Positions 38,115 through 55,186 of a stretch of 64,000 nt of DNA are shown piece by piece. The translations under genes were made by a program, and so were the position numbers. The stretch's first letter is position 1, and each line of letters starts with the position of its first letter. The stretch is taken from contig CAZOVJ010000002.1 of the NCBI GenBank assembly GCA_964583685.1, positions 213,862 to 277,861 of the forward strand, read 5' to 3'. The DNA is from an uncultured Gammaproteobacteria bacterium. GTDB taxonomy: Bacteria > Patescibacteriota > Microgenomatia > UBA8517. A model generated the notes under the pieces. The model was not told where the DNA came from, did no database searches, and saw only the letters and a list, made by a program, of their open reading frames with translations.

Positions 38115-38186
38115 TCCCCGGTAGCTCAATGGTAGAGCGCTCGCCTGTTAAGCGAAGGGTTGCTGGTTCGAGTCCAGCCCGGGGAG
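38115..38186 (+). tRNA. tRNA-Asn (anticodon GUU)
   Basis: TCCCCGGTAGCTCAATGGTAGAGCGCTCGCCTGTTAAGCGAAGGGTTGCTGGTTCGAGTCCAGCCCGGGGAG; anticodon loop CUGUUAA. Confidence 0.8.
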
Positions 38187-39785: not shown

Positions 39786-39917
39786 TATTTTTCTTTACTG
39801 AGTTGGTGTAAGTTGGTGTATATTTTGTGCCTGTTTCTGACTAATTCTTTCGCCTGCTTAGGCACAAAAATCTTATGTAACAGTTTTTTGGCCTCTCCCA
39901 CCATCCCTGACATCCGC

Positions 39918-40568
39918 CTAACATTTCTTACTTAACCTTCTCTTATTCAGCTTTCTTAGTTTCCAAACTTTCTTTTTATATTTGTCGTTTTTTATAGAAA
40001 TAGGTTTGTTCAGAAGTATCCCCTCATAATAGAATTTCTCATCCGCATTTTTCTGATAATCGCCTGAAAGCTGTTTTAGTAACCCTCGCCCTCTTTCCGT
40101 ATGCTCGTCAAGAGCTTCTGATTGAATTTTTAGTTTCCAGCCCGCCTTTCTTTTCAAATCAATATAATCGCAGGCGTAGTCAATTTCTCTGGATTTTTTA
40201 GCCCTACAAAGATAGAGGACAGCCATAGCAGGATGAAATGTTTCTATGTAATACTTTTTATTCACCCTTTCATTTAATTGGGCTAAGGCGTTAATTAGGA
40301 TTGGAGCTTGCGAGTCGGCAAGGCCAGCATCTTCAACAACAATGACGCTTAGCCTTCTCCAAAGGTAAGCAATATAGCGACCTTTAATTAGCTCCATCAT
40401 CCAAAACAAAGCCTTTTCCTCTTGGCCTCTACGAATAGCTTTTTGGAGTGAACTGACTACCTCATCCAATTTATACCCACCCGGAGTTTTGAGTTCAAAA
40501 GCAGGCTTTCTATCCTTCTTTTTTCCGTTTTTCTTTGTTTGGCTTTCTGCCTTAGTTTGGTTTTTCAT
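39918..40568 (-). CDS. Stand-alone MgsA/RarA C-terminal-domain-like protein
   Basis: LDEVVSSLQKAIRRGQEEKALFWMMEL...WRRLSVIVVEDAGLADSQAPIL... matches the MgsA_C pattern; no AAA+ domain. Confidence 0.4.
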   Translation of the reverse strand: MKNQTKAESQTKKNGKKKDRKPAFELKTPGGYKLDEVVSSLQKAIRRGQEEKALFWMMELIKGRYIAYLWRRLSVIVVEDAGLADSQAPILINALAQLNERVNKKYYIETFHPAMAVLYLCRAKKSREIDYACDYIDLKRKAGWKLKIQSEALDEHTERGRGLLKQLSGDYQKNADEKFYYEGILLNKPISIKNDKYKKKVWKLRKLNKRRLSKKC

Positions 40569-40780
40569 TTTAATCTCCTTTTTGGCCTTCTGAGATGCTC
40601 CTGAACGCTCTTTAGCAGCTTCAAGGTAGATGTTTATTGTTTTATCTCAAATGGCTCTTTTATCAGCTTATAATTTTTCTATCAGACTTTATTAGATTTT
40701 GGGACTGACAGTCTCAGCTAGGTTTATGAATGTGCAAAATAGCCTGATTTATGATATATTTTGAGCGTAACAGCCTGGCC

Positions 40781-41185
40781 TCATACGTCAAGTAAGGGTT
40801 CATTTGCCCCCGAAAGTTCCTTCTTAACTTTTTTAATCACTGTGTGCAGTTTTTCAATTATTTTGCTTGTTGGTAAATTCCCTATTTCATCCCAAATCCG
40901 GATGACTAATTCTTGGCTTTCGTTATTAAGTAATCTCAAGAGGTTGTCTGTATTTTTCATAAGTTGAATCTTCCGCCTCCATTTTCTGGCTTCTGATTTG
41001 GGAATATACATTTTCTTCAACTTTCTCTCTAATCTTTCGTCATAATCTCGGTAATACAGATAATAGGCTTTATGCCCTTTACCTCTGGTACAACGGCAAT
41101 TTGATTTTCCGCATTTAACTTTTTCAAGCCTGATTATTCCTAGCTCTTTCGGTTTATACTCTCTAAATGCTAAATCGTAGGCCAT
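40781..41185 (-). CDS. Small Cys-containing basic protein (CGKSNCRC), unknown
   Basis: 134-aa ORF in island. Confidence 0.35.
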   Translation of the reverse strand: MAYDLAFREYKPKELGIIRLEKVKCGKSNCRCTRGKGHKAYYLYYRDYDERLERKLKKMYIPKSEARKWRRKIQLMKNTDNLLRLLNNESQELVIRIWDEIGNLPTSKIIEKLHTVIKKVKKELSGANEPLLDV

Positions 41186-41189
41186 ACTA

Positions 41190-41444
41190 CTAACTTTCAG
41201 AAAATACCCTCGCTTTTAAGTTTTTGATGCTATTGACAAAAGATTTGACCTCAACCTTTGCTTCTCCCAACCAGTAGCAATTAACCTTTTCCTCGCATCG
41301 CCCTTTGTTGTTAAACACAAACCAGAAAAAGTCTTTTTCGGGCTCAAGTCTCACCAGTTTTTCCGACAGAGACAAGAAACTGGCAAGATATAAATCTTTA
41401 GTTCTGTATTCGTTCTGTTTTGGCATTTTTGGTTTCCTTTTCAA
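41190..41444 (-). CDS. Hypothetical small protein
   Basis: 84-aa ORF, tight spacing with neighbours. Confidence 0.3.
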   Translation of the reverse strand: MKRKPKMPKQNEYRTKDLYLASFLSLSEKLVRLEPEKDFFWFVFNNKGRCEEKVNCYWLGEAKVEVKSFVNSIKNLKARVFSES

Positions 41445-41668
41445 TCTTGTATAAAGTCACTAAAAAACCTCTGATATTCGCCGAAATCCCCCTGACTTCG
41501 TTGTCAGTAAGATTTCTCTGATACAGAGGTTCAAAGTATTGCTTGATTCGCTGCTGGTTTTTGGTAAGTTTGATGTCCATTTTCTCTGGGTTTTAATCTT
41601 TAATCCCAGATTAAGGCATTAAACTTCTTAATGTAATGGAGGTTTAATAGAAAGCTAAGTTTCCGCTT

Positions 41669-42349
41669 TTAAGAGGCTTGGAGTCTTTTTTCGTACTGCT
41701 TTACTGCCTTCCTGACCGTTTCTTTATACTTTTCAGGGTCAATGCCGCCTCTTTCTTTGTCTTCTGTGGCGATTTGCAGGTGAGTTTTCTCTTGTTTCTT
41801 TTTCCAATACCATTTCCTGTCCCTTTTTATATTGCTGATTGTATCGGGCGGTGCGTCTCCGTATGAGAGATAAACCCTATCAAAAGGTCTGATTTTCCTG
41901 ATAGTCTTAACCTGGGTTTTGAACTCCCTAAAAGCAGCTTCTAACTCTTTCTTGGTGGTGTCTGCTGTTATATAAATAGCAAATCTTGTAGGTGTACCCA
42001 CATCCATATCATTATCAACAGGACGCCAGTAGGCGGTTTCGTAGATTTTGTCATCAATATATCCGCTAATGATAGCCATATAGATAGCCCTGTCAAAGTT
42101 GGCTGTGAGCCTAAAGTGATTTCTTATTGGAGCAACATCTTTCCAGAAGCTATCGTATTGACCTTTTTTAACCATCCTGCTTGCCCATTCAAACTCCTGC
42201 TTTGGCTTAATAAGTCTAGTAATCTGCCACTTTTGCCTTAATCTGGTTACCTCTTTCAGAAAATCTTTTCTATCCACCAAGAAAGCAATATCGCAGTATT
42301 TCTTTTTATTCTTAATCTTTATCCTTACAGGTTCATATTTCATCTTCAT
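41669..42349 (-). CDS. Hypothetical protein (226 aa)
   Basis: ORF with upstream AG-rich RBS; no motifs recognised. Confidence 0.4.
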   Translation of the reverse strand: MKMKYEPVRIKIKNKKKYCDIAFLVDRKDFLKEVTRLRQKWQITRLIKPKQEFEWASRMVKKGQYDSFWKDVAPIRNHFRLTANFDRAIYMAIISGYIDDKIYETAYWRPVDNDMDVGTPTRFAIYITADTTKKELEAAFREFKTQVKTIRKIRPFDRVYLSYGDAPPDTISNIKRDRKWYWKKKQEKTHLQIATEDKERGGIDPEKYKETVRKAVKQYEKRLQAS

Positions 42350-42471
42350 CTAACTGGTATTTTATTGGATTAGAAGGATTTATTCAAAAATGGAGGTGTT
42401 CAAGGGAAAGTATCCGACAAAACAAAGCTAAGGAGCAGTCTTACTTTTTGAGCCAAAAATAGACAAGTTGC

Positions 42472-42903
42472 CTATTTGTAGTCTTCCACAATCATCTCGT
42501 AATTACCCAAAGAGTTAGAGTCGATATAGTATTCTCCCGAGCCATAAAAAATCGATTCATCCTTTACTGAGCCAGTTGTGTTCATAATCAGGTCTGACAT
42601 AATCTCACTATCTGGTTTTTGCAAAAAAGCTTGGCATAAATCGCCAGTACAGTTGTATTTGATTTTGAATCTATCCCCAGTAATTGTGAATGGTTCAGAT
42701 TTTTTAGCCCCATTGCCCTTGAAGGTAAAAACTGGTTGGTATTCTTTGGTGGCTTCTTTACTTTTTTGTGAGACTTCGGTTTCAGTCGTTGGACTGGTAT
42801 TTGATTGTTTTTCTCCACCACTGCCTGCCAATAAGCCAATGACTATAAAAACAGCCAATATGATACCTGCTATTTTTAGAACTTTTTTCACTTTTCTTCT
42901 CAC
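42472..42903 (-). CDS. Membrane-anchored secreted small protein
   Basis: N-terminal TM IAGIILAVFIVIGLLAG then Thr/Ser-rich linker. Confidence 0.4.
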   Translation of the reverse strand: MRRKVKKVLKIAGIILAVFIVIGLLAGSGGEKQSNTSPTTETEVSQKSKEATKEYQPVFTFKGNGAKKSEPFTITGDRFKIKYNCTGDLCQAFLQKPDSEIMSDLIMNTTGSVKDESIFYGSGEYYIDSNSLGNYEMIVEDYK

Positions 42904-42988
42904 CTCCTTTCGTTTTGGTTTGTTTGGTGAAAATATAACAGATTTACCGTCAAAAGTCTATGTTTACTGCGTTGTCGTTTTCTGAGGA

Positions 42989-43225
42989 TTGGTAAACAAT
43001 AGATTCACAATGCTATCCAAAAAAGCCTTCGCGGAGAAAGTTGGAAAAAATATAAAACGATTGAGAGAAAAAAGGGGGCTATCACAGGAGGAATTAGCTC
43101 ACAAAGCTGGACTTTACCGAACTTACATGGGTCACTTAGAAAACGCCAGATATTCCCCCAGTGCTTATATTTTGTATAAACTAGCTAAGATTTTGAAAAT
43201 AAAGATTTCGGAGTTTTTTTCTTAA
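42989..43225 (+). CDS. XRE-family HTH transcriptional regulator
   Basis: NIKRLREKRGLSQEELAHKAGLYRTYMGHLENARYSPSAYILYKLAKIL: classic HTH_XRE. Confidence 0.6.
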   Translation: MVNNRFTMLSKKAFAEKVGKNIKRLREKRGLSQEELAHKAGLYRTYMGHLENARYSPSAYILYKLAKILKIKISEFFS

Positions 43226-43236
43226 CGAAGTCAATT

Positions 43237-43701
43237 TTAGGATGCTTGAGTTGTTTTTTGAATCATTTCTAAATTCTTTAGTAATTGTTTGAGGATGGAT
43301 TTTTCAAAGAACTCAAAAGCTGGTTTATCTTTTGTCGTAAGCAAGTATCTTGCGGCTTTACTAGAAACTCTTAGGTGATGATATTTTGCCCTTATAGATG
43401 GAAATCTTTTAGCAATCAGGGTTTCCCTAAAGGCGTGCATGCTTTTATCTATGTCTAATGAGGCCATAGTTGACCGGTGGCGATTATAACAGTCATCAGT
43501 ATGCAATATTTCTGGGATACGGGTGAATGCAGCTTCAACGAAATGAAGAGCAGCATAAAAAGCACAAGTAATAGACCAATCTATAAAATCTGTCTTGGAA
43601 AGTTGTTTTGAGAGTTTCTTATTGTGCTCCGCTTGAGCATTATGCGTAGATAAACTTGACATTTTGGTAATCAAATGATTTTGCTGGGTGCAGATAGTCA
43701 T
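43237..43701 (-). CDS. Hypothetical protein (possible HEPN-like helical domain)
   Basis: 154 aa; ...WSITCAFYAALHFVEA...RAKYHH...; assignment weak. Confidence 0.35.
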   Translation of the reverse strand: MTICTQQNHLITKMSSLSTHNAQAEHNKKLSKQLSKTDFIDWSITCAFYAALHFVEAAFTRIPEILHTDDCYNRHRSTMASLDIDKSMHAFRETLIAKRFPSIRAKYHHLRVSSKAARYLLTTKDKPAFEFFEKSILKQLLKNLEMIQKTTQAS

Positions 43702-44323
43702 TAAATTCAGTTGACTCCTCTCTTTTTTTAACTGATAAATTTTCTTGTATTGCTCTGGTGAATATCAGTCTGTCTTCCTGGGGATTTATTAGGTTATTAC
43801 TTTCAGGATAATATGGAATATATTCAAAACTGATTAGTTTTTCTGAGAATGAGTCTTTAACAGGAAATTCTGCTTCATTAAAAATTTTGTCCATCAAATT
43901 GTAGTTATAGTGCTCAACATCTAATATGACCTTGACGGTTGTTAATTCTTCATTATGACTAATATAAATTTCTCTTATTTGTTCAAAATTTTTCAACCTG
44001 CGTGCTATTTTTAATTCTAATTGCTCTTCCGGTGTTGTTGGGTAATCTGACATAAGAGTAAAATCTTGTAAAGGCTGGTTAAAAGCTAAATAGCTTTGTG
44101 GTGGTGAGGCTGTGAAGTAAATAACTTGATTCATTTGTTGTTCACTTTGTGTCCCTAAGGAGATAAGGGCGGATTCTTCACAGGAGGCATTTATTGACTT
44201 TACTTCTATCGATGCCCCAGGAGATGCGTTTTCTTCATCAATAAACTTCCTTTGTAGTGAGGCAAGTAAGTAAGTATCATTTAATTTAGAGGTAGCTTCA
44301 AAACTGCTATTTATTGTGTTCAT
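43640..44323 (-). CDS. Hypothetical protein (227 aa)
   Basis: Overlaps downstream gene by 62 nt; AT-rich. Confidence 0.4.
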   Translation of the reverse strand: MNTINSSFEATSKLNDTYLLASLQRKFIDEENASPGASIEVKSINASCEESALISLGTQSEQQMNQVIYFTASPPQSYLAFNQPLQDFTLMSDYPTTPEEQLELKIARRLKNFEQIREIYISHNEELTTVKVILDVEHYNYNLMDKIFNEAEFPVKDSFSEKLISFEYIPYYPESNNLINPQEDRLIFTRAIQENLSVKKREESTEFNDYLHPAKSFDYQNVKFIYA

Positions 44324-44328
44324 TTTAA

Positions 44329-45030
44329 CTATAGTCCGAGACTGGCGAGAGTACTTTTTACCGATAATTCAAAGGCGTTACTAAAAAATGCCATCGCTTT
44401 TGGAAAATCAATTTTGTATTTAATTGTTTTTAATGTATTGATGTCTGATATTACTAAAAACAATCCTTTTTCTTTATTTCCTTCTTTTGAAATTAGCCTT
44501 ATCCAGTTATTTGTTTTGAAATCTCCAATTTTTTCAATAAATAATCTATGTATCTGTAGTTCGGTTGAGGCGTCTTTCGGATTACTAAGATAATTTTTCT
44601 TTAGGAGTTCTATTCCGTTGATAGATTGGCTGACTTTGTATTTTGTAACTAATCCTAGTCTATTGCTGGTCATTGAAAATCTAGTAAAGGTAATTTTGGC
44701 TAGTCTTTGGACAACCTTAAAGAAATCTTCTTTTGTTTTCTCAAGCGGCTTTTTCTCATCTGTTTCTTTATAGCTTAAATCAAGCCTATTGGCAGCGATA
44801 TTACAAGTTAGGTTTTTGTCTTTGCTAATTAAAATTATTCTTGGTATTTCTAAAGGTGCATCATCTGGTATTGGAAGGGTAGTTGGTGTTCCATTGAGTT
44901 TTGGAGATAGTCCTTTTTGTATTAAACTAGCTACACTTAACCTGTTTGATAAATCTATATTCCCGAGGAAAAAAGCAGCCTGAATGGATTGTGTAGAGAA
45001 TGGTATTTTCATAAAATCTAAATTAGACAA
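44329..45030 (-). CDS. Hypothetical protein (233 aa)
   Basis: First gene of three-gene minus-strand operon. Confidence 0.4.
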   Translation of the reverse strand: MSNLDFMKIPFSTQSIQAAFFLGNIDLSNRLSVASLIQKGLSPKLNGTPTTLPIPDDAPLEIPRIILISKDKNLTCNIAANRLDLSYKETDEKKPLEKTKEDFFKVVQRLAKITFTRFSMTSNRLGLVTKYKVSQSINGIELLKKNYLSNPKDASTELQIHRLFIEKIGDFKTNNWIRLISKEGNKEKGLFLVISDINTLKTIKYKIDFPKAMAFFSNAFELSVKSTLASLGL

Positions 45031-45189
45031 ATATATTATAACAGAAGGTAAAATTAATTTCTTTTTACACCATTAAACTAGTCCGAACTTCGTCTACGAT
45101 GGGGAGCCGAACTTTTTTGGCCTCAGATTTTACTACCCTCAGCAGGACGTTAAAACCCATGCTAGACTTGTTCAGACCTTTATAATGTT

Positions 45190-45762
45190 GTGAACAAACC
45201 AAGACCCAACAAGGCAGAGAAAAAGTTTTTGAATTTAGCATACAACAAGTTTTACGACATTTTTGATGAGATTGCCAATGACTCCTTTTGGAAGAAAAGT
45301 GATTATTACAGATTATGTAAAATTAAAGAAGCCTTTTCTTTGTATTCCGAACTTCTTAATTATCCACCAATAGGTTGGTTTATAGAGCAATTAAAGGAGA
45401 ACCGTCCCCCAATGGAGGCAGAGATAGGTGGTGAACTATTTCGTTTTGTCAGAAATGTTATGGTTCACTTTCCCTTATTTGAAGGCTGGAATGAAATTTG
45501 GATAGATAAAGATATTGTAAATTGGCACAAAAAAGGATTGTCCATTGATAGGTTTCTTAAAAAATACGATGGACATAAAGTGGTTAAATATAGAATTTGG
45601 GAAGCAGCAAAAAAGAAAATGACTTATATAAGTATAAAATTTCCTAAAAGCTACAAAAAGGGCAAGAAGGTTTACCTAAGGGATGTTATTGAAGAAAAAG
45701 ATGGAATTTGGTTTTCGGTAGTTTTTATGAAAAAAATCCTGGACCCTCAAATTGAACAATGA
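45190..45762 (+). CDS. Hypothetical protein (190 aa)
   Basis: GTG start 3 nt after a TATAAT hexamer; start uncertain. Confidence 0.4.
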   Translation: MNKPRPNKAEKKFLNLAYNKFYDIFDEIANDSFWKKSDYYRLCKIKEAFSLYSELLNYPPIGWFIEQLKENRPPMEAEIGGELFRFVRNVMVHFPLFEGWNEIWIDKDIVNWHKKGLSIDRFLKKYDGHKVVKYRIWEAAKKKMTYISIKFPKSYKKGKKVYLRDVIEEKDGIWFSVVFMKKILDPQIEQ

Positions 45763-45776
45763 TGGAAACTGGCTTC

Positions 45777-46436
45777 TTATAACAATTCAGAAGGGCGATA
45801 TTTATTCATTCCTGGGTTTGGCCATATTTCCCCAATGAATACCCGTTCACTTGAAACACTATAAAACATTACTGCCGAAAATGGATAGTTTTTAGAATTG
45901 AAACGCTTGGAAATTATTTCCCAATCCACAAAACTGACATCCTCAGGAATTATTAGCAACTTTGTGTTTGTTTTTGTGTACCGCCGAGGTATTTCCTTGT
46001 TAAGGTATTCTAAAAGAGTTTCTGTTATGTCTCCCTTTTTATGTTTTCTAAAGCGTTTTAATTGAAACGCAATACCTTTGGAAGTTTTCCTGTCCATATA
46101 TTTTATTTTTCCTGGGCTTATTACAACATCTATTGGAGTATTAGAGTCGGTATATCTTCTCAAAATCTCTCTAATTAACAACAGATTCGCCTTTCCTTTA
46201 TCTGGTATGTCTCTCGCATATTTATCTTTTAGCTTAAATCCTATTAGGGTATCGGTTTTCCACAATTTACGGTAGAAACCACTTAATAGTAAACTTATTA
46301 TTAATTCGTAGTTTTGGGAATCAGACTTTATGTTAACTTTTTTTAATAATGCCTTTAAAGTTCGTCTCTTAATAAAAAATGTCTCCACAAGACCTATTAT
46401 ATTAGATGTTGTGAAGATAAAAGGTTCTGACTTCAT
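45777..46436 (-). CDS. Hypothetical protein (219 aa)
   Basis: Convergent with previous gene; start abuts conserved 132-nt intergenic block. Confidence 0.4.
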   Translation of the reverse strand: MKSEPFIFTTSNIIGLVETFFIKRRTLKALLKKVNIKSDSQNYELIISLLLSGFYRKLWKTDTLIGFKLKDKYARDIPDKGKANLLLIREILRRYTDSNTPIDVVISPGKIKYMDRKTSKGIAFQLKRFRKHKKGDITETLLEYLNKEIPRRYTKTNTKLLIIPEDVSFVDWEIISKRFNSKNYPFSAVMFYSVSSERVFIGEIWPNPGMNKYRPSELL

Positions 46437-46616
46437 CCACGATAAGATTTCGTGCTTTATGTAGAAAGAAAATTACGCTGATAATCTGGATGAAGAATTA
46501 GAAACGGGCTTGGTACTTCTGTGTAATGCCTGATGAAATAGTTTCTGTATTTATATATATTAGGGAGCTAGCTTCAGAAAACCTATTTAGCGGGCTTTAT
46601 TTGGTAGAATAGAAGT

Positions 46617-47330
46617 ATGAGAGTTGGGTTGGTGATTGCTAAAGATGAGAAAGATTTATCTGAACTGAGAAAGTTCGTTCTTGAAACAAAAGAGGTAGAT
46701 TTGTTTCTTTTCCCCGAGGGATATTTAGATGCAGCCCAGCTTGATGAAGCATCGGAAATCGTGGCAAGGTCAAGTAAGTGGCTTGTAACTAGCTATTCTG
46801 ATGAAAGAAAAAAGAGAAAAATTGAGGTGGGAGTTGTATTTAATAGGAGAGGTAAAATAGTTGGCAAGCACGCTAAGACGACTTTAACCCGAGATGAGAT
46901 AAAAAAGGGTTACGTCTCGGGCAAAAGTATTGAAATTATCAAAACAGAATTTGGGAAAATAGGAATCTGTGTTTGTTACGAGATGCATTTTCCTGAAATA
47001 GCTCGGGAATACAAACTCCAAGGTGCAAGAGCGATTTTCAACCCCGTCGGGACAGGAATGTATAACGAGGAACAATATAGGCTTTGGGCTTCGTTGGGTA
47101 AAACCAGAGCTTATGAAAATGGAGTTTACACCTTTGGCTGCAGCCACCTTAGCGATGCGATTCCAATAGCCTACGCTTATGATAAAGATGGAATTGAGCT
47201 ACTAAAAGCAAGGGCTGTAAATAAGCTCTTTATACTTAATGTTCCTGTTGAGGAGATGACGAGGAAAGATGATAGGTGTAGTTTGATAACCAAAAGAACT
47301 CCCAAGCTTTATAAAAACCTTTCTAGGTAA
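46617..47330 (+). CDS. Carbon-nitrogen hydrolase (nitrilase superfamily) protein
   Basis: Catalytic triad context LFLFPEGYL (Glu), K, GICVCYEMHFPE (Cys). Confidence 0.6.
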   Translation: MRVGLVIAKDEKDLSELRKFVLETKEVDLFLFPEGYLDAAQLDEASEIVARSSKWLVTSYSDERKKRKIEVGVVFNRRGKIVGKHAKTTLTRDEIKKGYVSGKSIEIIKTEFGKIGICVCYEMHFPEIAREYKLQGARAIFNPVGTGMYNEEQYRLWASLGKTRAYENGVYTFGCSHLSDAIPIAYAYDKDGIELLKARAVNKLFILNVPVEEMTRKDDRCSLITKRTPKLYKNLSR

Positions 47331-47437
47331 CTAAACTAGTTCGAACTTCGTCCACGATAGAGTAACTTCAAGCTCAATTTGATGGGCTTTCTGATTTTTA
47401 ATTTTCGCTAGCGATGATGTTTTGGTAGAATTAACAT

Positions 47438-48109
47438 ATGAGTACTACAATAGATTGTCTTAGAACCAGGAGGAGTATCAGGGTTTATAAACCAGACCCA
47501 ATCCCCAAAGAGATTTTAAAGAAAATCTTCGAGGCGGCAGAACATGCACCTTCTTCTAAAAATACCAGACCTTGGGAATACTATGTTTTAACCGGGAAAG
47601 AAAAAGACCATATTTGCGATATAGTTGTTGAAGAATATCCCAAGAGAAAAGGCCCTTTCAGGAAGCGAGAAGAGTATGCACCCGCTAAATCCGTTAGCGA
47701 TGATAGAAATATTGATGATTTTCGGACTGCCAGAATAATGACGAATATCGGCAGTACAGTCTTTATTCGTCAGGCTCCAGCTCTGGTTTTAGTATTCAAT
47801 AAGGCTCCATACACTGCCGGAGAGCAAGATGTCATCGATGAAGCAGGAAAAGAGGCGCTTTTGGCCTATTGCGTTGAAATTCAAGGCGTGGCGGCTTTTA
47901 TTTATAGCCTTTTATTGGCCGCTCACGAACTTGGCTTGGGTGGTTGCTGGATTGCCGATATCAATTTCTGTCGGGACAAAATCAAAAAATACATTGGCAC
48001 AGACAACGATTTGGTTGCAGGCGTGGTTTTGGGCTATCCTGAAACTAAGGTTCCCCCTAAGAAAATTTCTTTGGATGAGCGAAAATTAGCTTCCTGGAAG
48101 AAGAAATAG
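47438..48109 (+). CDS. Nitroreductase-family protein
   Basis: RRSIRVYKPDPIPKEILKKIFEAAEHAPSSKNTRPWEY: nitroreductase signature. Confidence 0.7.
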   Translation: MSTTIDCLRTRRSIRVYKPDPIPKEILKKIFEAAEHAPSSKNTRPWEYYVLTGKEKDHICDIVVEEYPKRKGPFRKREEYAPAKSVSDDRNIDDFRTARIMTNIGSTVFIRQAPALVLVFNKAPYTAGEQDVIDEAGKEALLAYCVEIQGVAAFIYSLLLAAHELGLGGCWIADINFCRDKIKKYIGTDNDLVAGVVLGYPETKVPPKKISLDERKLASWKKK

Positions 48110-48193
48110 TTTCTGACCTTGCCCATCAGGTGGAGCTAGCTTCAGAAGCCCAGTTTCCTGGGCTTTTTTGGTTTGTGGTAGAATATTGCCAGC

Positions 48194-49291
48194 ATGCTTT
48201 CAGATATTTCTCCTCTTATTAGCAAGGTAAGCGAGGGGCAGAACCTAACAGCAGCGGAGACAGAAAGGGCTCTTGATACTGTTATTGAAGAAGACAAAGA
48301 GGGATGGTTTGCTTGGTCACTTCTTCTTGCACTCCATACCAAAGGGGAAACAGGAGATGAGTTCCTAGGATTTTGCAAGAGCTATGTAAAACGCCTTCCT
48401 AAACTTAACCCAAAAATTGACATTGATAACACCACTGACACTTCTGGGACCGGAGGAGATAAGTTAAAGACCTTCAATATTAGCACGACGGCCTCTGTGG
48501 TGCTTGCTGGAGCAGGTGTCACAGTAGCCAAACAAGCGTTTTTTGCTGTCACGGGATTCTCTGGGAGTGCTGAGATATTCGGGGCATTTGGAGTGGATGT
48601 CTTAAAAATAAGACTTCAACAAGTGGAAAAGACTCTGGAGACGATTGGGATTTGTCCATATCTTAAAGAAGTTTTAGTTGAGAAAACTGGTCTTGAGAAT
48701 CTGATGGTCACAAAAAAAGTCTCGGATATGGGGCTAAAGCTAGTTTCTCCTCTCCATATTGTTGCCAATGTAGTCGCACCAATTAAAATGAAAAGGAGAG
48801 TTTACGGTTGCACTTGGAGAAAATATTTGCCTGTTTTAGCTGAGCTTTTTCAAAAGCTGGGATACACAAAGGGAATGGTCGTTCATGGCGTGGACGGAAT
48901 CGATGAGATGTCAAATATTGGCAAGACAGAGATTGTAGAGTATACAGCAAAAAGGACAAAGGCCTACAAACTTAGCCCAGCTGACTTAGGAATTAGAAAA
49001 GCAAAATTTGAGGATATTAAAGCCATTAGCAAAGAGCGAAATGTGATTGACTTCTTACGAATCCTTTACGGGAAAGAGAAAAGTCCCAGAAGAGATATTG
49101 TTCTTGCCAACACCGCTGCTTCTTTATATGTTATGGGTAAGGTTAAAAACTTGAGTGAGGGGGTGGCGATGGCAGGAGAAGTTATAGACGAGGGGTTAGC
49201 CTTTAAGAAATTAGAACAACTAGTAAAAGCTTTAGGAGATGAAAAGCAGCTTGAGAATTGGAAGAAGAAAGCTGGTTTAGCTTCAAACTAG
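48194..49291 (+). CDS. Glycosyl transferase family 3 / anthranilate phosphoribosyltransferase-like (TrpD homolog)
   Basis: DTSGTGGDKLKTFNISTTASVVLAGAG: TrpD GTGGD...FNIST motif. Confidence 0.65.
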   Translation: MLSDISPLISKVSEGQNLTAAETERALDTVIEEDKEGWFAWSLLLALHTKGETGDEFLGFCKSYVKRLPKLNPKIDIDNTTDTSGTGGDKLKTFNISTTASVVLAGAGVTVAKQAFFAVTGFSGSAEIFGAFGVDVLKIRLQQVEKTLETIGICPYLKEVLVEKTGLENLMVTKKVSDMGLKLVSPLHIVANVVAPIKMKRRVYGCTWRKYLPVLAELFQKLGYTKGMVVHGVDGIDEMSNIGKTEIVEYTAKRTKAYKLSPADLGIRKAKFEDIKAISKERNVIDFLRILYGKEKSPRRDIVLANTAASLYVMGKVKNLSEGVAMAGEVIDEGLAFKKLEQLVKALGDEKQLENWKKKAGLASN

Positions 49292-49610
49292 TCCGAACTT
49301 CCTCAGCACCATTCACTTCGTTCAGGTACGGGGCAGGCGTCCACGATAAGACCTCGTGCTTTATGCAGGAAGAAAACTGTGTTGATATTCTGGGTGAAGA
49401 ATTAAATATGGGCATGGTACTTCTGTATAGTGCTTAATGAAATAGTTTCTGTATTTATATATATTAGGGAGCCCTGAATAAAAAGAGCCTATGTATGACT
49501 CTTTTTTATTTACTTTGCCTGTTTCCCTCCCTGTATCCAAAAATCTCAACCGATCCAAAGTCATCCGGGTTTCAAGAGGAAGATATTCTTACAAGAAATA
49601 ATCTCCAGGC

Positions 49611-49638
49611 TTGACGTCTTTAATATTTTTGTTATAAT
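49611..49638 (+). promoter_or_regulatory. Consensus sigma-70 promoter TTGACG-N16-TATAAT
   Basis: TTGACG 49611-49616, TATAAT 49633-49638; about 350 nt upstream of the next ATG (49991). Confidence 0.5.
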
Positions 49639-49990
49639 ACCTCTAATTTAATAATCAGGGAGGGATGGACAATTGCTGCCCATCCTTTTTGATTATTAAA
49701 GACCAATTTTTTCAAGTAAAGTGGAAGGCTTTTAACGGCAAAGCGCCAAATAAGGCCTGACACAATGCTTTTAAAATATTCAGTTTTAGTCCCGAATCGT
49801 CGGGAGCACCTTAACAAGTAAATAATGGATAAGAAATAGCGCCGTTGTCCCTCTGTGATAAAAACCCTGAGTTCTATTAGTGAAGGAGTTATCAGCCAGT
49901 CACCTGTGTCCTGAGAGAAATCAAAGGACTCCTGAGGTGACCCAGTTGTGTGTCAATTTGACACCGACAAAAAAGATAAGGAGAGAGAAA

Positions 49991-50335
49991 ATGAACTGGG
50001 TTATTAACATCATCTTTTGCCTGATCACAGCGGTAAACTTCACTTTATATGCCTTGGCATTCCGTAAGGTTGGTCCAGCCGAAATATCATTTAACTATGT
50101 TTTTTCGGTTTTGACTAATCCTTTCTTTGTCTTGGCCCTGGTGATGGCACTGCTCGGCTCAATCCTCCGGATGGCAGTATTTACTGCCTTTGGGGTAATG
50201 CGCTCAGCTGTCGTTTCTGAGATGACAGTGGTCTTTACGCTGGTGTTAGCTTTCTTGGTTTTTCAGGAAAAGCTTGACCTACGCTTCTTCGTAGGAACAG
50301 GCTTCATCCTGATCGGTGTCTACCTCCTCAGCTAA
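49991..50335 (+). CDS. Small 4-TM DMT/EamA-like (ArnE/F-like) membrane protein
   Basis: ATG 49991 with RBS AAGGAGAGAG; ORF-track start 49880 is a likely over-extension; four hydrophobic helices. Confidence 0.5.
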   Translation: MNWVINIIFCLITAVNFTLYALAFRKVGPAEISFNYVFSVLTNPFFVLALVMALLGSILRMAVFTAFGVMRSAVVSEMTVVFTLVLAFLVFQEKLDLRFFVGTGFILIGVYLLS

Positions 50336-50385
50336 ACCAGGTTTTCTCCGCAGAGTCAAACGCAAATCTACTGAAAGGAGAGAGT

Positions 50386-51549
50386 GTGATGAAAATCCTG
50401 TTGGTATCCAACTTCATTCCTGGTGGGAGGCCTGTCAGCGAATATTGTTACTACTTGGTTGAGGCACTCAGAAAAATTGACGAGATAGCAGAAATCACGG
50501 TGTTAGCGGATATTGTTCAAGGAAAGCCTCCAATTACGAGAGATGGAAAAGTTACTATCCGGAGGTGCTGGGAGTTTAATTCGCACCTCACGCCGTGGAG
50601 GGTGGCAAAAACCATCAGGTCGCTTAACCCTGAAATCTGCTGGTTCAACATCACTCTTGGTAGCTTTGGTATGACGACAGCCAACTTTGCAGGTCTCTTG
50701 TCGCCACTAATTGTAGAACGGCTGCTCGGCATACCGTGTTTGATCACCCTCCATAACATTGTTGATCTAACTGATACTCGGGAAACGAAGTTTCGTGGAG
50801 GAAAACTAACAATTCTTGGAGCAAGGATTGCAACTAGGATCTTGTGTAAGGCAAGCCTGGTTTCCGTTCTTCTTCCAGAATACGAACCAATCTTAAGGAG
50901 AAGATATGGTGCCATGGATGTCAAGATCGTTCCTCTCGGGACCCTGGGTCAACCCATAAACTGGCCGTATAATTCTGAGACAAAGCGCATCCTCAGTCTC
51001 GGTATATTTGGGACCCACAAGAGGCTCGAAACCACACTTGAAGCGATGGAAAGTCTGTACGCAGGAGATCCTACTATAAAACTGACCATAGTGGGAGGAT
51101 CCAATGTCCATAACCCAGACTATCTCGCAAAACTCCAGCAAAAATTCAGGTCACTTCCGAATGTCGATTTTGTAGGATACGTTCCAGAGGATTGTGTCGC
51201 TGATGTTTTTAGGGAATGCAGGGCTGTGATTTTACCCTACCAAACAATTGGAGGCGAATCGGCTACCCTCATCCAGGCAGGGATGTACGCAAGACCAATC
51301 CTTGTATCCGACCTACCTTTGTTTCGTCGCAAGGCAGAGGATGGGTATATTCTCAACTTCTTCGACGTCAATGATCCTGAAAGTATCAAGGAGGCAATCC
51401 TGGCCCTACTTCGGCAAGACCAAGAAACACTAGCCAGGCAAGGTAAACAAAACTTTCGGGCTGCGACATCCTATCCGATGAGTGAAGTTGCTCAAATCTA
51501 CGTAGACTTGATTGAGGAAATCCTTAACAAGAAAGAAGGAGGTGTGTGA
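50386..51549 (+). CDS. Glycosyltransferase family 4 (GT-B) protein
   Basis: C-terminal GT4 pattern ...AVILPYQTIGGESATLIQAGMYARPILVSDLPLF... Confidence 0.65.
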   Translation: MMKILLVSNFIPGGRPVSEYCYYLVEALRKIDEIAEITVLADIVQGKPPITRDGKVTIRRCWEFNSHLTPWRVAKTIRSLNPEICWFNITLGSFGMTTANFAGLLSPLIVERLLGIPCLITLHNIVDLTDTRETKFRGGKLTILGARIATRILCKASLVSVLLPEYEPILRRRYGAMDVKIVPLGTLGQPINWPYNSETKRILSLGIFGTHKRLETTLEAMESLYAGDPTIKLTIVGGSNVHNPDYLAKLQQKFRSLPNVDFVGYVPEDCVADVFRECRAVILPYQTIGGESATLIQAGMYARPILVSDLPLFRRKAEDGYILNFFDVNDPESIKEAILALLRQDQETLARQGKQNFRAATSYPMSEVAQIYVDLIEEILNKKEGGV

Positions 51550-53318
51550 TGGACAGGCGGCTTATAATAGCCATTTCCGTAATTACCCTCTTGAACCTCC
51601 CCCTAATGGCTAGCCTCTTTTTCGACAACAACTGGGACAGTGAAACCCACCTCTTCTTTGCGGATCATTACCGTAGAGATTGGTTTGATCCCTGGGAGGA
51701 AAAGTGGTATGGCGGCTTTTGGGTTTATAGCTATCCGCCGTTAACCCATCAGCTAATCGCTATCTTTTCCCTTCCCTTCGGGTTAGAGGTGGGATACAAA
51801 TTGGTTCAAGGCCTTTCTCTCTCAGCTTTCCCTTTAGCTGTGTGGTTACTTGCCAAGGAGGTGGTAGGTAAGAAGTATGCAGGATGGGCTGCCTTACTCA
51901 GTACGGGGGTGGCGGGCGTCTATGTCATTCTTTACACGTTCGGACAGCTTCCCGCCTTCTTGGCCCTGGTGTTTGTCTTGATAGCAGGAACTTTTCTCGC
52001 CCGTTATCTAAAATCGGGTGGGTTAATTCCGCTATTCGGGTGGTTCTTCTTTACAGGAACGACTGCTGCAACACACCATCACACTGCTTTTGTAATGCTG
52101 CCAATGCTGGCAAGTGTTTTAGCTCTTCAAAACTGGATTACCAAGCCATTCAGCTTTTCAAGATTCCTGTTTCGGCCAGCAATAGCTGCACTGCTGTTCG
52201 TCTTCGTGGTAGCAGTAGCCATCGCCCCATTCTGGTGGTGGTTCTCCACCCAAAGCCTACCCCAAGCCGAGATACCCCATCCCACTCGGGAAAATATCTT
52301 CAGAGTCTGCCGTGAGTCACGGATGTTCTTCTGGGATATGTATGGAGGCATCCTGGTTTTACTGCCTGTTGGATTCTGGGTTACAGTTCGTCGGCGAGAC
52401 CTATGGCCACTAGGAATCTTCATTGTTTTCTTGGGAATACTAGGGCTAGGGGGACTCACCATCGTACCAGAGGTGGTTTTCCAGAGATGGTGGAGGGTGT
52501 TCACCTATGAACGGTTTCCCTTGTGGGCTGCTGTTCTCAGCCTGATACCAATCAGTGTTTGGGTAGGAAACTTGGAAAGGCGCGGCATTTGGCGATACAC
52601 CACAATCTCTCTCTCATTACTTCTAGCAATAGGGACAATGAGGGCAATCTCATTCCCATTAGATAATGATGACCTCTTACCAAAACCGCTAAAGAGGTGG
52701 GAGGAGACAGAGATAGTCAAATTCCTAGAGGTTGATGGTCATTCCCAATGGAACTACGTCACTTTTGGACTAGGAGAATCGCAACTTGCTCGACTTTCCA
52801 GACTTACTTCTGCTCGAACCATAGATGGTTTCTTCCACCAGGCCCGCTGGAGAGTAGAACAGAGAGAATCTGGTGTTGGAACGATCGACAGCTCTCCTTG
52901 GGCGGGGGAGGAAAGCTATAGCCTTCTTTTCCCAATTCTCCAACGTCCCTGGGAGTGGAGTCTCAGGTGGGCTATAGTCGCTAATTCATGGGCAGAGGAG
53001 CACTTACGAAATTCCGGCTGGTCACTCCTTCGCCCTGCTGATTGGTCACTCCTTCACCCTATTGGCTCCGACGATTCATATAAACTAGGAGACCCGGCTT
53101 ACAGTCTAGTCACGGTCTGGGAAGCACCAAATGAAGTACCTATCCCGGAGGTTGAACCAGGCCAACAAGTAGGTCCGCCCTACTACCCACAAAGTAGTCC
53201 TGTCAAGCAATTCGTCAAACAATTCCTGCCTTACTTGTGGGGTTTGGTACCTCTGTTTCTTCTAGTCGGAGGACTTTGGGTAATGTACTGGGAAGTGTGG
53301 AATCAAAAAACTGAATAG
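51546..53318 (+). CDS. Polytopic membrane protein, putative GT-C-type glycosyltransferase
   Basis: 590 aa, more than 10 TM, aromatic-rich loops; start overlaps GT4 stop. Confidence 0.45.
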   Translation: MMDRRLIIAISVITLLNLPLMASLFFDNNWDSETHLFFADHYRRDWFDPWEEKWYGGFWVYSYPPLTHQLIAIFSLPFGLEVGYKLVQGLSLSAFPLAVWLLAKEVVGKKYAGWAALLSTGVAGVYVILYTFGQLPAFLALVFVLIAGTFLARYLKSGGLIPLFGWFFFTGTTAATHHHTAFVMLPMLASVLALQNWITKPFSFSRFLFRPAIAALLFVFVVAVAIAPFWWWFSTQSLPQAEIPHPTRENIFRVCRESRMFFWDMYGGILVLLPVGFWVTVRRRDLWPLGIFIVFLGILGLGGLTIVPEVVFQRWWRVFTYERFPLWAAVLSLIPISVWVGNLERRGIWRYTTISLSLLLAIGTMRAISFPLDNDDLLPKPLKRWEETEIVKFLEVDGHSQWNYVTFGLGESQLARLSRLTSARTIDGFFHQARWRVEQRESGVGTIDSSPWAGEESYSLLFPILQRPWEWSLRWAIVANSWAEEHLRNSGWSLLRPADWSLLHPIGSDDSYKLGDPAYSLVTVWEAPNEVPIPEVEPGQQVGPPYYPQSSPVKQFVKQFLPYLWGLVPLFLLVGGLWVMYWEVWNQKTE

Positions 53319-53404
53319 TGAGAAATAAAGATCACGATTCGCCGTAGGCGAAATTTGCTGTTCTCACCAGCAAGTACCGAAAGGTTAAAGTGATCTTGTT
53401 CCGT

Positions 53405-53436
53405 CAAAAAACCCACCCTAAAGGTGGGTTTTTTGT
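53405..53436. terminator. Bidirectional rho-independent terminator
   Basis: AAAAA-CCCACC-ctaaa-GGTGGG-TTTTTTG. Confidence 0.6.
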
Positions 53437-53786
53437 TTCAGACTATTGATATTTTTTAGTGTCCTCAACAACCAGGATGTGGTAGGAGATAGTACGTTTA
53501 TTTTACAAGCCCGCCGCAAATGCAAGTCCTTGCACGCTTCAGAAAGCCCAACTGCTCCAATCCCACATCGGAATTGGTTGACATTTTGTATAAGCGAGAA
53601 ATCAGAGGTGACAAACCAAAACCAGGACACGAGCAGGATATTGCCAATCTAAGATTGATTACTCATGCTAGAGAAGTTGAAGCTAGGCTTGCAGAATAAG
53701 TCCTTTAGGGGGAGCCATCTTTCGCCAGGGCTTCAGAGTGGCAAGCCACGCATTTTTTGGCCTCAAATTTTATTACTCCAAATAAG

Positions 53787-54227
53787 ATGATAGAACCTGA
53801 TATAATTTTCTCAATGAAAATAGGTGTTGTTGGTAGCATGCAGTACACAGAAGAAATGATGGGATTCCGTGATGAGTTGGCTAAATTGGGCCATGATGCC
53901 TTTTTAACAAACTTGGCCACGCCTTTTGTTGGGAAAGGCAATGAGGAAAAAGAAAAAATAAAAATACACCAAAAGCAAAACATGGATGCCATACGAGAAT
54001 TTTGGAATTTAATGCAAGGTGCGGATGCGATTTTAGTTGTGAACCTGGATAAGCATGGAATCAAGAATTACATTGGTGGAAACACTCTCATGGAAATAGG
54101 ATTTGCTCATGTTCTTGATCAGAAGATATTCTTACTCAATCCCATACCAGACATTCCTTATTACAAAACTGAAATCGAAGCCGTAAAGCCTATTATTATC
54201 GACGGAGATTTAAGCAAAATTAAATAG
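53787..54227 (+). CDS. Nucleoside 2-deoxyribosyltransferase-like protein
   Basis: KIGVVGS...DAILVVN...GGNTLMEIGFAHV pattern; ORF-track start 53757 is TTG, so first ATG used. Confidence 0.45.
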   Translation: MIEPDIIFSMKIGVVGSMQYTEEMMGFRDELAKLGHDAFLTNLATPFVGKGNEEKEKIKIHQKQNMDAIREFWNLMQGADAILVVNLDKHGIKNYIGGNTLMEIGFAHVLDQKIFLLNPIPDIPYYKTEIEAVKPIIIDGDLSKIK

Positions 54228-54284
54228 AAAACTAGTCCGAACTTCCCACCAAATTAGGTTTTTTTGGTTTGGTAGAATAAAGAT

Positions 54285-54803
54285 GTGAAACTAGCAGAGT
54301 ATAGAAAGACCTTAACTGGGCCCTTGAAGCAAGCAACTTTATGCTTTTTGATTAGAGAAGGTGGAGTGTTGTTGGCAATGAAAAAGCGGGGCTTTGGGAA
54401 AGGAAGATGGAATGGGCTTGGTGGAAAACCTGAGCAAAATGAAACAATAAAGAAAGCTGCAATCAGGGAAACACAGGAAGAGATTGGTGTTACTCCCGTT
54501 TCCCTCCGTAAAGTGGCAAAATTAGATTTTTATACCCCCAACAATCCTGAGTGGAATCAACAAGTCATCGTGTTTTTGGTCGATAAATGGAAAGGAGAGC
54601 CAAAAGAATCCGAAGAAATGGCCCCTCAATGGTTTAAAATGGAAGATATCCCCTTTGATTCTATGTGGGCTTGCGATTCCCACTGGCTACCTAAAGTCTT
54701 AGAGGGGAAGACTCTTACGGCCGAGTTTATGTTTGACGAAAACGACGAGATTTTGGAAATGGCAATCCACGAGGGAGAGCAAAATCTTATTAACCAGACG
54801 TAG
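54285..54803 (+). CDS. NUDIX hydrolase
   Basis: Nudix box GGKPEQNETIKKAAIRETQEEIGV. Confidence 0.75.
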   Translation: MKLAEYRKTLTGPLKQATLCFLIREGGVLLAMKKRGFGKGRWNGLGGKPEQNETIKKAAIRETQEEIGVTPVSLRKVAKLDFYTPNNPEWNQQVIVFLVDKWKGEPKESEEMAPQWFKMEDIPFDSMWACDSHWLPKVLEGKTLTAEFMFDENDEILEMAIHEGEQNLINQT

Positions 54804-55186
54804 GGGAGCCAAGCTTGGCGAGGGCGTAAAAAGCAATTTTGTCAAGAAAATGCCCTGGGTGCTATAGTTAAAAGCATGAGAAAAGCAAGGAAACTTCATC
54901 CTAAATAACTCCGTCTGAATTGTATTCTCAAACGCCTTAGTAATCTTGGAAATACTAGTTCTAACAATCCCGCTGAGCGGGGCAGGTCTCAGGGCTGGGG
55001 AGCCAGTTTGTTTTAATAAAAACCCAAATTATAGGGTTCATATGAAAAAATGAAAAAGAAAAATTTATGTTGCTGGTATAATAAAAACTCGGCTATGAAA
55101 AGAGCCTGATGGAACTGTCGATGAGAATTTAAAATGAAAGAAAGACAGGAAGAGTCATCGGAAGGAATAGCGCAGCCTGGTGAAAA

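Follow-up and report, generated by a model that had tools for sequence, protein, structure and literature searches.

The 64-kb window analysed here (the whole stretch of DNA, with positions counted from its first letter) carries between 38115 and 55005 what we interpret, with a probability of roughly 0.6, as a composite genomic island, which would have started from the 3' end of a tRNA-Asn gene and have grown by tandem integrations, partly in a cassette-like manner, without being an integron. Structures of this kind are known; this one comes from a lineage that has been little studied and includes an unusual component of single-gene, arm-tagged units; judging from the RpoD homologues, the host genome would belong to Candidatus Woesebacteria of the candidate phyla radiation. 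An earlier sequence-only reading of the distal part had described a cassette array built by recombination and bracketed by shared intergenic modules, and this is correct in so far as unrelated accessory genes are indeed joined by shared junctions on the same strand, but the anchor of the array, the tRNA-Asn gene together with a serine recombinase gene 5-7 kb upstream, had been missed.

An integrated serine recombinase element at tRNA-Asn

The anchor is tRNA-Asn(GTT) (38115-38187, plus strand; ARAGORN, Rfam, sequence and junction comparison), which lies directly downstream of dnaG-rpoD and whose 3' end, ...GTCCAGCCCGGGGAGC, includes the attachment (att) core GGGAGC at 38182-38187. A large serine recombinase of 545 amino acids (aa) is encoded next to it on the minus strand (38148-39785), the final ~13 codons overlapping the 3' half of the tRNA gene on the opposite strand, and the protein has the Resolvase, Recombinase and zinc ribbon architecture in Pfam (PF00239, E=8e-23; PF07508, E=2.9e-13; the zinc-ribbon matches are weak) that is expected of such an enzyme of about 450-700 aa. 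Homologues with 65-75% identity are present in other Woesebacteria, and contig L071 has a recombinase of 75% identity that adjoins tRNA-Asn just as in the window, so that in both cases a tRNA gene with an adjoining site-specific recombinase gene is found at the island boundary.

The distal end of the element is located at 46412-46568 (plus strand), where a degenerate arm (46412-46445) leads into the first copy of a 133-nucleotide (nt) direct repeat (46436-46568) that finishes with the core GGGAGC (46563-46568). The last ~100 nt of this repeat (46469-46568) match the far element ends of L071 (86%) and L072 (82%), and in an alignment of these two with the window ends at 46568 and 49472 the similarity stops in 4/4 cases right after ...ATATATATTAGGGAGC (...GTTTCTGTATTTATATATATTAGGGAGC), i.e. 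after GGGAGC. The recombinase-side junction likewise reads tRNA-Asn...GGGGAGC|ATAAGTGTACGATT (GGGGAGC|ATAAGTGTACGATTCTGAC) in all three genomes. These shared ends and junctions identify 38188-46568 as a single integrated element of 8.4 kb, flanked by the 6-bp core GGGAGC, one copy of which is the tRNA's own 3' end. The tRNA 3' end is accordingly found directly repeated at the distal boundary (GGGAGC at 38182 and 46563), the repeat being short (6-7 nt), and ~22 nt next to the core are invariant at the recombinase element's own end. What had earlier been called module 2, a free-standing motif at three places, is by the same comparison the terminal arm of this element: the motifs at 46435 and 49339 open the 133-nt repeat (46436-46568 and 49340-49472, 86% identical), whereas the sequence at 47350 has only GTCCACGATAGA in common with it (10/12 bases).

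The resident tRNA-Asn reads GGGGAGC|ATAAG (38181-38190) and has no encoded CCA, while the copies at 53710, 54804 and 54998 read GGGAGCCA; the encoded CCA of tRNA-Asn seems to have been replaced through integration. In a related Woesebacteria contig, L078 (1-21725), two large-serine-recombinase genes are found ~9 kb apart, the first of them abutting AATCCTAGGACTAGGGAGC, a tRNA-Asn-like fragment, instead of a full tRNA, and between and around the two are defence genes (a CBASS-like CD-NTase with Cap15, PvuII-type restriction-modification, a Type ISP restriction enzyme and LexA). Relatives can thus be seen to have tandem recombinase elements.

Shared modules and putative partial tRNA ends

Module 1 (AAACTAGTYCGAACTTC; searched as AAACTAGTCCGAACTTC with at most 3 mismatches) is found at 45075, 47333, 49285 and 54229 of the window, always on the plus strand and against a chance expectation of 0.15, and four matches were reached in 0/100 shuffles. 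The 133-nt repeat and the shared terminator and promoter pieces come in addition, and the shared intergenic modules are confirmed as real. A position directly after stop codons, which had been claimed for all copies of module 1, holds for 3/4, these being located on or at most 3 nt from the stop of a co-oriented open reading frame (ORF), with the internal TAG serving as the stop codon at 49285, but it does not hold for the copy at 45075, which has no ORF upstream. Degenerate copies lie near 46412 and 54951, and motif and profile searches found none in the other 54 kb of the window with its ~50 intergenic regions.

The motif GGGAGCC/GGAGCT recurs at 45102, 46563, 48132, 49467, 53710, 54804 and 54998, and the longer pattern GTCC-N5-GGGGAGC is found with at most one mismatch only in the tRNA (38172) and at 45092 and 53700, all on the plus strand. 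The canonical site, GT-CCACG-ATGGGGA-G-CC, has lengths of 5 nt (T-stem 3' strand) and 7 nt (acceptor 3' strand) followed by a discriminator G, its copies across contigs differ by substitutions and without insertions or deletions, and the core is followed by CCA at 53710, 54804 and 54998 in the window and in L042, L044, L014 and the flank of L072. Furthermore, tRNA-Asn matches the element at 12/20 positions, as compared with 4-7/20 for the other six tRNAs of the window. We infer that the GGGGAGC(CA) motifs at 45102, 48132, 53710, 54804 and 54998 are displaced partial tRNA-Asn 3' ends, which would be the att cores of earlier integrations; the displaced fragments are only 16-20 nt long, and a second element end is present at 49340-49472.

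Exact matches to module 3 (TAGCTTCAGAA) lie at 46569 and 48137, as had been noted, and the similarity spans 38 nt at 79% and takes in a terminator-like hairpin (48144-48167), but as an 11-mer alone it is not above chance (3 found as against 2.2 expected). Module 4 had been described as preceding start codons, and the exact TGGTAGAAT is indeed found in the window only at 46602, 47423, 48176 and 54270, each time 6-9 nt upstream of a start codon; it looks like an extended -10 promoter motif (consensus TGnTAnAAT). The sequence TTTTGGTAGAAT also precedes unrelated genes in L068 and L025 and therefore seems to be a promoter consensus of general use in these organisms. None of the four genes shows a Shine-Dalgarno sequence between motif and start (46602-46617, 47423-47438, 48176-48194 and 54270-54285), which together with the short distance of the -10 motif from the start suggests leaderless or near-leaderless transcripts. 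Modules 3 and 4 thus look like a terminator and an extended -10 promoter that are normally found behind the tRNA-like core and travel with it.

A complete short site is present within the cargo of the recombinase element (45075-45137, plus strand) and consists of the arm AAACTAGTCCGAACTTC, the partial-tRNA-like GTCTACGATGGGGAGCC and a right module A (TTTTTTGGCCTCAGATTTTACTAC), in the same arrangement as in L006 and L019; TTTTTTGGCCTCARATTTTAYTAC is found both here, at 45113, and at 53753. Rfam holds no family for the modules (gathering thresholds over the whole window, and E up to 5 over 44.9-55.3 kb), and when the intergenic units are folded singly, most do no better than shuffled sequences. 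A quasi-palindrome centred on the core (AAACTAGTCC...GGCCTCAGATTT) was dropped as evidence, since the repeat finder gave it no support.

The arm family in other contigs

The exact 17-mer of module 1 was scanned against one representative genome per species and the JGI metagenomes, which gave 43 loci, and after removal of chance matches in high-GC organisms ~13 distinct contigs with a GC content of 0.37-0.43 were left, all of which have AAACTAGTCCGAACTTC and then a GTCCACGAT-GGGGAGC-like sequence. Only two of them are from metagenome-assembled genomes (MAGs) labelled as Patescibacteria (L006, L014), two from MAGs labelled as Gammaproteobacteria/Nevskiaceae (L005, L007) and the rest are unlabelled metagenome. 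L005 and L007 have a GC content of 0.37-0.39 and Patescibacteria-like genes despite their labels and are, on composition and gene content, probably mis-binned. A profile of the arm copies adds diverged neighbours, which keep to a single strand in each case: L025 has four within 3 kb, L035 has three, and L021, L031 and L044 have two each. In agreement with the sequence-only reading, module 1 is met in other genomes at the ends of accessory genes, often in clusters of ~1 kb spacing, and within the window the modules are missing from the other 54 kb.

Conservation of the arm starts sharply at AAACTAG, 26 nt from the core, and these 26 conserved nt are comparable with the ~22 invariant nt at the recombinase element's own end. 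In 16/25 copies the arm is found at most 35 nt after a co-oriented stop codon, which it often overlaps, as opposed to 7.5% of random positions, and at three ends of recombinase elements (46412, 49285 and L071) a degenerate arm precedes the core by ~150-190 nt. Module 1 with GTCCACGAT (26 nt) may be an arm to which a recombinase binds on the element side, in a second family of small elements that is widespread. The canonical unit, as seen in L025, L037 and L019, has the order arm, GTCCACGAT, GGGGAGC, short spacer, hairpin AGAAAGCCCAGTTTNCTGGGCTTTTTT and TGGTAGAAT, and colinearity with it is restored when the nitroreductase unit (47359-48130) or the 133-nt arm is deleted from the window sequence; there is therefore a recurring break point between CGAT and GGGAGC, and this is where the distal junction of the recombinase element falls as well.

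The genes near arms include those for an ANT(6)-type adenylyltransferase, a YafQ toxin, HEPN, cupin, PCMT and endonuclease III-like proteins and many unknowns. A cupin-like gene with its arm is found in two unrelated contexts (L021 and L035), with homology that sets in ~22 nt ahead of the start codon and ends at GTCCAC within the site. L035 also has a streptomycin/aminoglycoside adenylyltransferase gene (3360-4175, minus strand; Pfam Adenyl_transf, E=2e-60) in an arm-flanked unit on a Patescibacteria-like contig. In tblastn searches the island proteins of the window matched at recombinase loci only.

Contents of the recombinase element

The backbone of the element (39918-42349, minus strand; Pfam) encodes MgsA_C-like, DUF6788 and DUF5659 proteins and a protein of 226 aa, and the order DUF5659-DUF6788-MgsA_C-recombinase is conserved in L071-L077 (35-82% identity in tblastn), the cargo of which varies and includes for example MmeI-type or type III restriction-modification genes. 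L078 has the DUF5659 and DUF6788 genes, no MgsA_C, and a Type ISP restriction gene in its cargo. In the window the variable cargo (42472-45030, GC ~0.34; Pfam and GC profile) comprises an HTH_3 regulator gene (42989-43225, plus strand) and unknown genes on the minus strand, and it is followed distally by two more unknown genes (45190-45762, plus strand, and 45777-46436, minus strand; ORF calls) with no Pfam match; PADLOC and PDB sequence searches with the unknown cargo proteins gave nothing significant. The GC profile shows 0.34 over 43-47 kb and 0.46-0.49 over 50-53 kb, as compared with ~0.37-0.43 in the flanks, and the low-GC block (0.34-0.39) of the genes that follow the recombinase gene ends at ~46.6 kb.

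Units downstream of the element

The following 2.9 kb (46569-49472), with genes for a CN-hydrolase, a nitroreductase and a TrpD-like protein, are a relic that has the same ~133-nt terminal arm and core, the lack of a recombinase module being the reason for calling it a relic; its repeat copy diverges from the first copy as much as the copies of other genomes do. It opens on the plus strand, like all that follows, with a right module B (46569-46610), in which TAGCTTCAGAA is followed by the remnant of a terminator-like hairpin and by the extended -10 TGGTAGAAT (46602-46610), and which precedes the CN-hydrolase gene (46617-47330; Pfam). An arm with the start of a putative partial tRNA (AAACTAGTTCGAACTTCGTCCACGAT; 47333-47358) is found 2 nt past the stop codon, and next comes the nitroreductase unit (47359-48130), which has its own TGGTAGAAT (47423-47431) and gene (47438-48109; Pfam) and sits between the arm and the core of one site. 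The stretch 48131-48184 has a T and the core remnant GGAGCT (48132-48137), module B with the intrinsic-terminator-like hairpin (48144-48167) and TGGTAGAAT (48176-48184), and leads to a TrpD-like Glycos_transf_3 gene (48194-49291; Pfam) whose TAG stop lies inside the arm of the distal end. The latter (49285-49472) consists of the arm (49285-49301), a 37-nt insert and the second repeat copy (49340-49472) with the core GGGAGC (49467-49472). A Logan unitig from SRR3095939 (L002) corresponds to 46539-49472 and has the same 30-mer of the 133-nt repeat at both ends, which could reflect either the influence of the repeat on the assembly graph or a circle formed by the three-gene relic.

Beyond the relic lies a 4.2-kb block of higher GC content (49473-53699, 0.46-0.49; Pfam, GC profile and gene calls), with genes for an EamA-like protein (49991-50335), a GT1 glycosyltransferase (50386-51549) and a membrane protein of 590 aa (51546-53318) in addition to small ORFs. 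Ahead of these genes, at 49611-49990, a near-consensus sigma-70 promoter (TTGACG, 16 nt, TATAAT, with TG upstream; 11/12 matches) is followed by a GC-rich hairpin with a T-run (~49662-49690) and then by an untranslated stretch of ~300 nt, and this region, for which Rfam gave no match, could be a leader or a small RNA. The block is closed by a putative partial tRNA-Asn 3' end with CCA (GTCC-TTTAG-GGGGAGC-CA; 53700-53717) right behind a TAA, having 0 mismatches to GTCC-N5-GGGGAGC, and the remainder of this site (53700-53777) consists of a 35-nt insert and then a right module A (53753-53777); a 19-mer of the site is also found in L006.

A gene of no known function (146 aa, 53787-54227) is followed 1 nt past its TAG stop by an arm copy (54229-54245) and then by a Nudix (MutT-like) unit (54270-54811) with TGGTAGAAT (54270-54278), the gene (54285-54803; Pfam) and a core with CCA, GGGAGCCA (54804-54811). 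The sequence ATCCACGAGGGAGAGC within the 3' end of the Nudix ORF (54765-54780) is similar to the site's right half, which in L046 reads GTCCACGAGGGCGAGC, and sits 24 nt ahead of GGGGAGCCA at the Nudix stop codon, and it may be an older site that was absorbed into the coding sequence. The last site ahead of the next gene of conserved function, NadA (55187), is found at 54951-55005 and has a degenerate arm ACTAGTTCTAAC, GGGGCAGG and a core with CCA, GGGAGCCA (54998-55005); the fold of this site has z = -2.6 relative to shuffles.

As to the gene identities proposed from the sequence, CN_hydrolase, nitroreductase, Glycos_transf_3 and NUDIX are all borne out by Pfam, but the deoxyribosyltransferase-like protein is not: the window protein has no Pfam match, and a homologue gives only a sub-threshold Nuc_deoxyrib_tr match (E=0.057). 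Similarly, the description of one gene per unit applies to a few single-gene units but not to the 8.4-kb element, the 2.9-kb relic and the three-gene block of 4.2 kb (49.5-53.7 kb).

Variation between strains and relatives

Relatives with 80% identical RpoD have kept the synteny upstream of rpoD and have entirely different genes downstream, and because synteny breaks immediately after rpoD, no orthologous empty site can be defined by means of this gene. Variation between strains, for which a comparison had been proposed, is seen in L024, a co-occurring contig from the same sample series as L016, which is identical to the window. L024 is 99.8% identical to the window right of 54069, where the segment begins within the 146-aa gene, takes in its final third and goes on through arm, promoter motif and Nudix, and it is unrelated to the left. 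A comparison of L024:846-1316 with 53787-54227 reveals a hybrid gene, the last ~53 codons of which are identical in DNA and the first ~100 of which belong to a diverged paralogue (54%-identical), and upstream of it L024 has other genes (a 98-aa ORF and a minus-strand gene). L024 shows a recent exchange with a breakpoint of homologous type inside a gene.

Nudix homologues in other Microgenomates (64-68% identity) are found in other contexts and have no modules. Two further candidates for variation were rejected, as L017, L022, L023, L027 and L034 turned out to have their breakpoint ~375 nt downstream of the element instead of at it, and as the 69-nt mismatch at L001:1-69 (the end of JGI contig Ga0111034_1010876, abutting window 46123) is an Illumina Nextera adapter/index and no variant junction. 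Scans of IMG/VR for a viral origin gave chance matches or nothing, and the element end is absent from the viral contigs scanned.

Proposed formation of the island and alternative explanations

In the model that we favor, the serine recombinase element would integrate at the 3' end of tRNA-Asn by way of the core GGGAGC, the element end ...ATATTAGGGAGCATAAGTG... being the proposed recombination partner, and new DNA would enter at this core and shift older units outward. On this view stop codon, arm and partial tRNA together would form a junction of the attR type where an integrated unit has its distal end, and deletions as well as homologous recombination between repeated arms would produce the mosaic. 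The island model predicts a circular element junction ...TATATATATTAGGGAGC|ATAAGTGTACGATT and an empty site tRNA-Asn...CCCGGGGAGC|TAGCTTCAGAA.

A number of observations are in poor agreement with such a composite island. Neither an excised or circular form nor an empty site was seen in the assembled contigs compared, and since large serine recombinases normally do not reuse attL/attR hybrid sites, the formation of a tandem array is left unexplained. The left junctions of the nitroreductase and Nudix units have no clear copy of the core, and integrative elements are typically larger than these integrase-less units of ~1 kb. The core itself measures only 6-7 nt, the profile built from the arms does not match the genuine tRNA-Asn, and at 2 mismatches GTCC-N5-GGGGAGC is found 14 times as against 10.4 expected, which is at chance level. 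Furthermore, all-against-all BLASTP and Pfam revealed no recombinase in the ~13 contigs of the module 1 family, and no tRNA gene other than an unrelated tRNA-Glu was found within a few kb of module 1 in the other contigs.

It could alternatively be argued that module 1 and its partner are a free-standing small interspersed repeat of the REP/BIME, BOX or MITE-like kind, which spreads by itself into the 3' flanks of genes and maybe acts as a hairpin or terminator, so that its local enrichment reflects the tolerance of an accessory region and its similarity to a tRNA end is coincidental. This notion, which we find unlikely though worth weighing, stems from the location of the site just past stop codons, as is typical of REP-like repeats, from the mosaic combination of sub-motifs, which resembles BIME and BOX, and from the single copies amid ordinary-looking genes in L046, L040 and L006; it should also be mentioned that AAAACTAG...CTAGTTTT in L006 is an exact 8-bp inverted repeat, that the second L021 copy, L037 and the second L035 copy fold as hairpins with partly compensating changes, and that the copy at 45075 folds better than shuffles (z = -2.7). 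Most copies however fold insignificantly (z -1.5 to +1.2), with the outer stem mostly missing, and the boundaries show neither terminal inverted repeats, there being no consistent inverted partner, nor target-site duplications. In addition, no RAYT or transposase was seen near any copy in the sequence scanned, module 1, unlike REP repeats with their high copy number across a genome, has zero copies in the ~50 intergenic regions of the other 54 kb of this 64-kb window, and gene and arm move between contexts as one unit with breakpoints at one place inside the site.

A cassette-capture platform, i.e. a hitherto undescribed, tRNA-seeded analogue of integrons in Woesebacteria and related Patescibacteria in which single genes with their own promoters and a 26-nt arm (TAAACTAGTYCKAACTTCGTCCACGAT-GGGGAGC) are moved individually at GGGAGC cores by the large serine recombinase, would account for the single-gene units bounded by arm and core (nitroreductase, 47359-48130; Nudix, 54246-54803), the ~1-kb-spaced arrays of L025, L035 and L021, the same gene and arm in different contexts, the cassette-typical cargo (ANT(6)-type adenylyltransferase, YafQ toxin, HEPN, cupin and small unknowns) and the presence of a serine recombinase with the crossover core GGGAGC at the head of the array. 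We nevertheless regard it as rather doubtful, because neither a circular cassette nor an empty/occupied polymorphism at one site was seen, the left junctions are without a core copy, the recombinase's own arm (GTTTCTGTATTTATATATATTA) is unlike module 1, no recombinase is present in the sequence of the other arrays, the Nudix homologues elsewhere lack flanking modules, and the sole strain breakpoint observed is intragenic and points to homologous recombination. That same breakpoint fits the notion that the shared pieces are nothing but regulatory signals, a terminator and a promoter duplicated with their neighbours or homogenised by homologous recombination, much like the promoter/stem-loop cassettes of T4-type phages and without any site-specific recombination. 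Module 4 likewise agrees with an extended -10 (TGnTAnAAT), TTTTGGTAGAAT stands before unrelated genes in L068 and L025, and module 3 runs into a good intrinsic-terminator-like hairpin that is also found in L025, L044 and L037, but this explanation is made very improbable by the facts that module 1 and the core are neither promoter nor terminator, that similarity ends exactly after GGGAGC in four element ends, and that the tRNA/recombinase anchor and the CCA-bearing partial tRNA ends are left unaccounted for. A classical integron or CALIN, finally, is scarcely conceivable in spite of same-strand repeats at the 3' ends of unrelated genes and of an R''-L''...L'-R'-like imperfect palindrome at 45075-45178 (GTCCGAAC...GTTCAGAC). 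The other copies have no downstream inverted partner and fold no better than shuffles, the RYYYAAC (R'') and GTTRRRY (R') boxes that pair in attC sites, which are imperfect palindromes of 57-141 nt, are lacking, no Phage_integrase (IntI-type) domain was found by Pfam in ORFs of at least 60 aa at 38-57 kb, where the sole recombinase is of the serine type, and the genes carry their own promoter-like TGGTAGAAT, unlike the mostly promoterless cassettes of integrons, which are expressed from Pc. The earlier statement that no integron is involved, with neither an integron integrase beside the array nor an attC consensus, hence stands.

The composite island is of some general interest, as candidate-phyla-radiation bacteria have tiny genomes and their gain and loss of accessory genes are little described. 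The locus offers a concrete mechanism, in which tRNA-Asn-targeting serine-recombinase elements of Woesebacteria with defence and metabolic cargo would build an island by accretion, and the arm profile together with the GGGAGC core may serve as a sequence tag by which metagenomes can be searched for such islands and perhaps also for mobile units of a single gene. Should the single-gene units be individually mobile, they would constitute a cassette system that resembles the integron but relies on another class of recombinase.

Relation to known systems

A search of the literature on integrons or repeat elements in Patescibacteria found nothing relevant. REP/BIME, BOX and ERIC sequences are short, partly palindromic and modular, are found just past stop codons and occur in mosaic combinations; unlike these, the modules of the window keep to a variable region linked to a tRNA, are carried along with the gene upstream of them and hold a putative partial tRNA end. 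The integrases of phiC31, Bxb1 and A118 consist of Resolvase, Recombinase and zinc ribbon domains, their attL and attR share few bases and the recombinase gene is located at the end of the element. The domain architecture, the position of the recombinase and the ~22-28 conserved nt beside the core on the element side are alike here, whereas the target is the extreme 3' end of a tRNA, phage structural genes are lacking and the cargo of relatives is restriction-modification and CBASS.

In SCC/SCCmec, large serine recombinases integrate at one site, the 3' end of the conserved gene rlmH, and give tandem and composite arrays with recombinase-less pseudo-SCC units and short direct repeats that contain the integration-site sequence. 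The serine recombinase, the single target site, the recombinase-less units and the short direct repeats are all reminiscent of the present locus, which differs in having the tRNA-Asn 3' end as its target, another recombinase family and backbone, and much smaller units. Chromosomal integrons, such as the one with the Vibrio cholerae repeats, carry single accessory genes with a conserved 3' repeat in one orientation and with cargo of the toxin-antitoxin or resistance type. They are similar to the window in their one-orientation 3' repeats on mostly single accessory genes, in their toxin- and resistance-type cargo and in the recombinase at the head of the array, but the window has a serine recombinase, no attC-type palindromes, genes with their own promoter-like motifs and a 26-nt arm with a tRNA-like core.

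Islands seeded at tRNA genes, with tandem integrations, scattered partial tRNAs and newer elements that displace older ones outward, are documented (10.1101/2020.12.28.424599). The tycheposon-type islands of Prochlorococcus described there likewise start at a tRNA and have an integrase-bearing element adjoining it and accessory cargo, and their degraded older units further out, parted by partial tRNA copies, would have a counterpart here too; a minority of these elements moreover also use large serine recombinases (10.1101/2020.12.28.424599). The tyrosine recombinase and the primase/helicase replication module that are hallmarks of tycheposons were however not found by Pfam among the proteins scanned here, and the present island further differs in its Woesebacteria host, its core of 6-7 nt and its several single-gene units with a conserved 26-nt arm.

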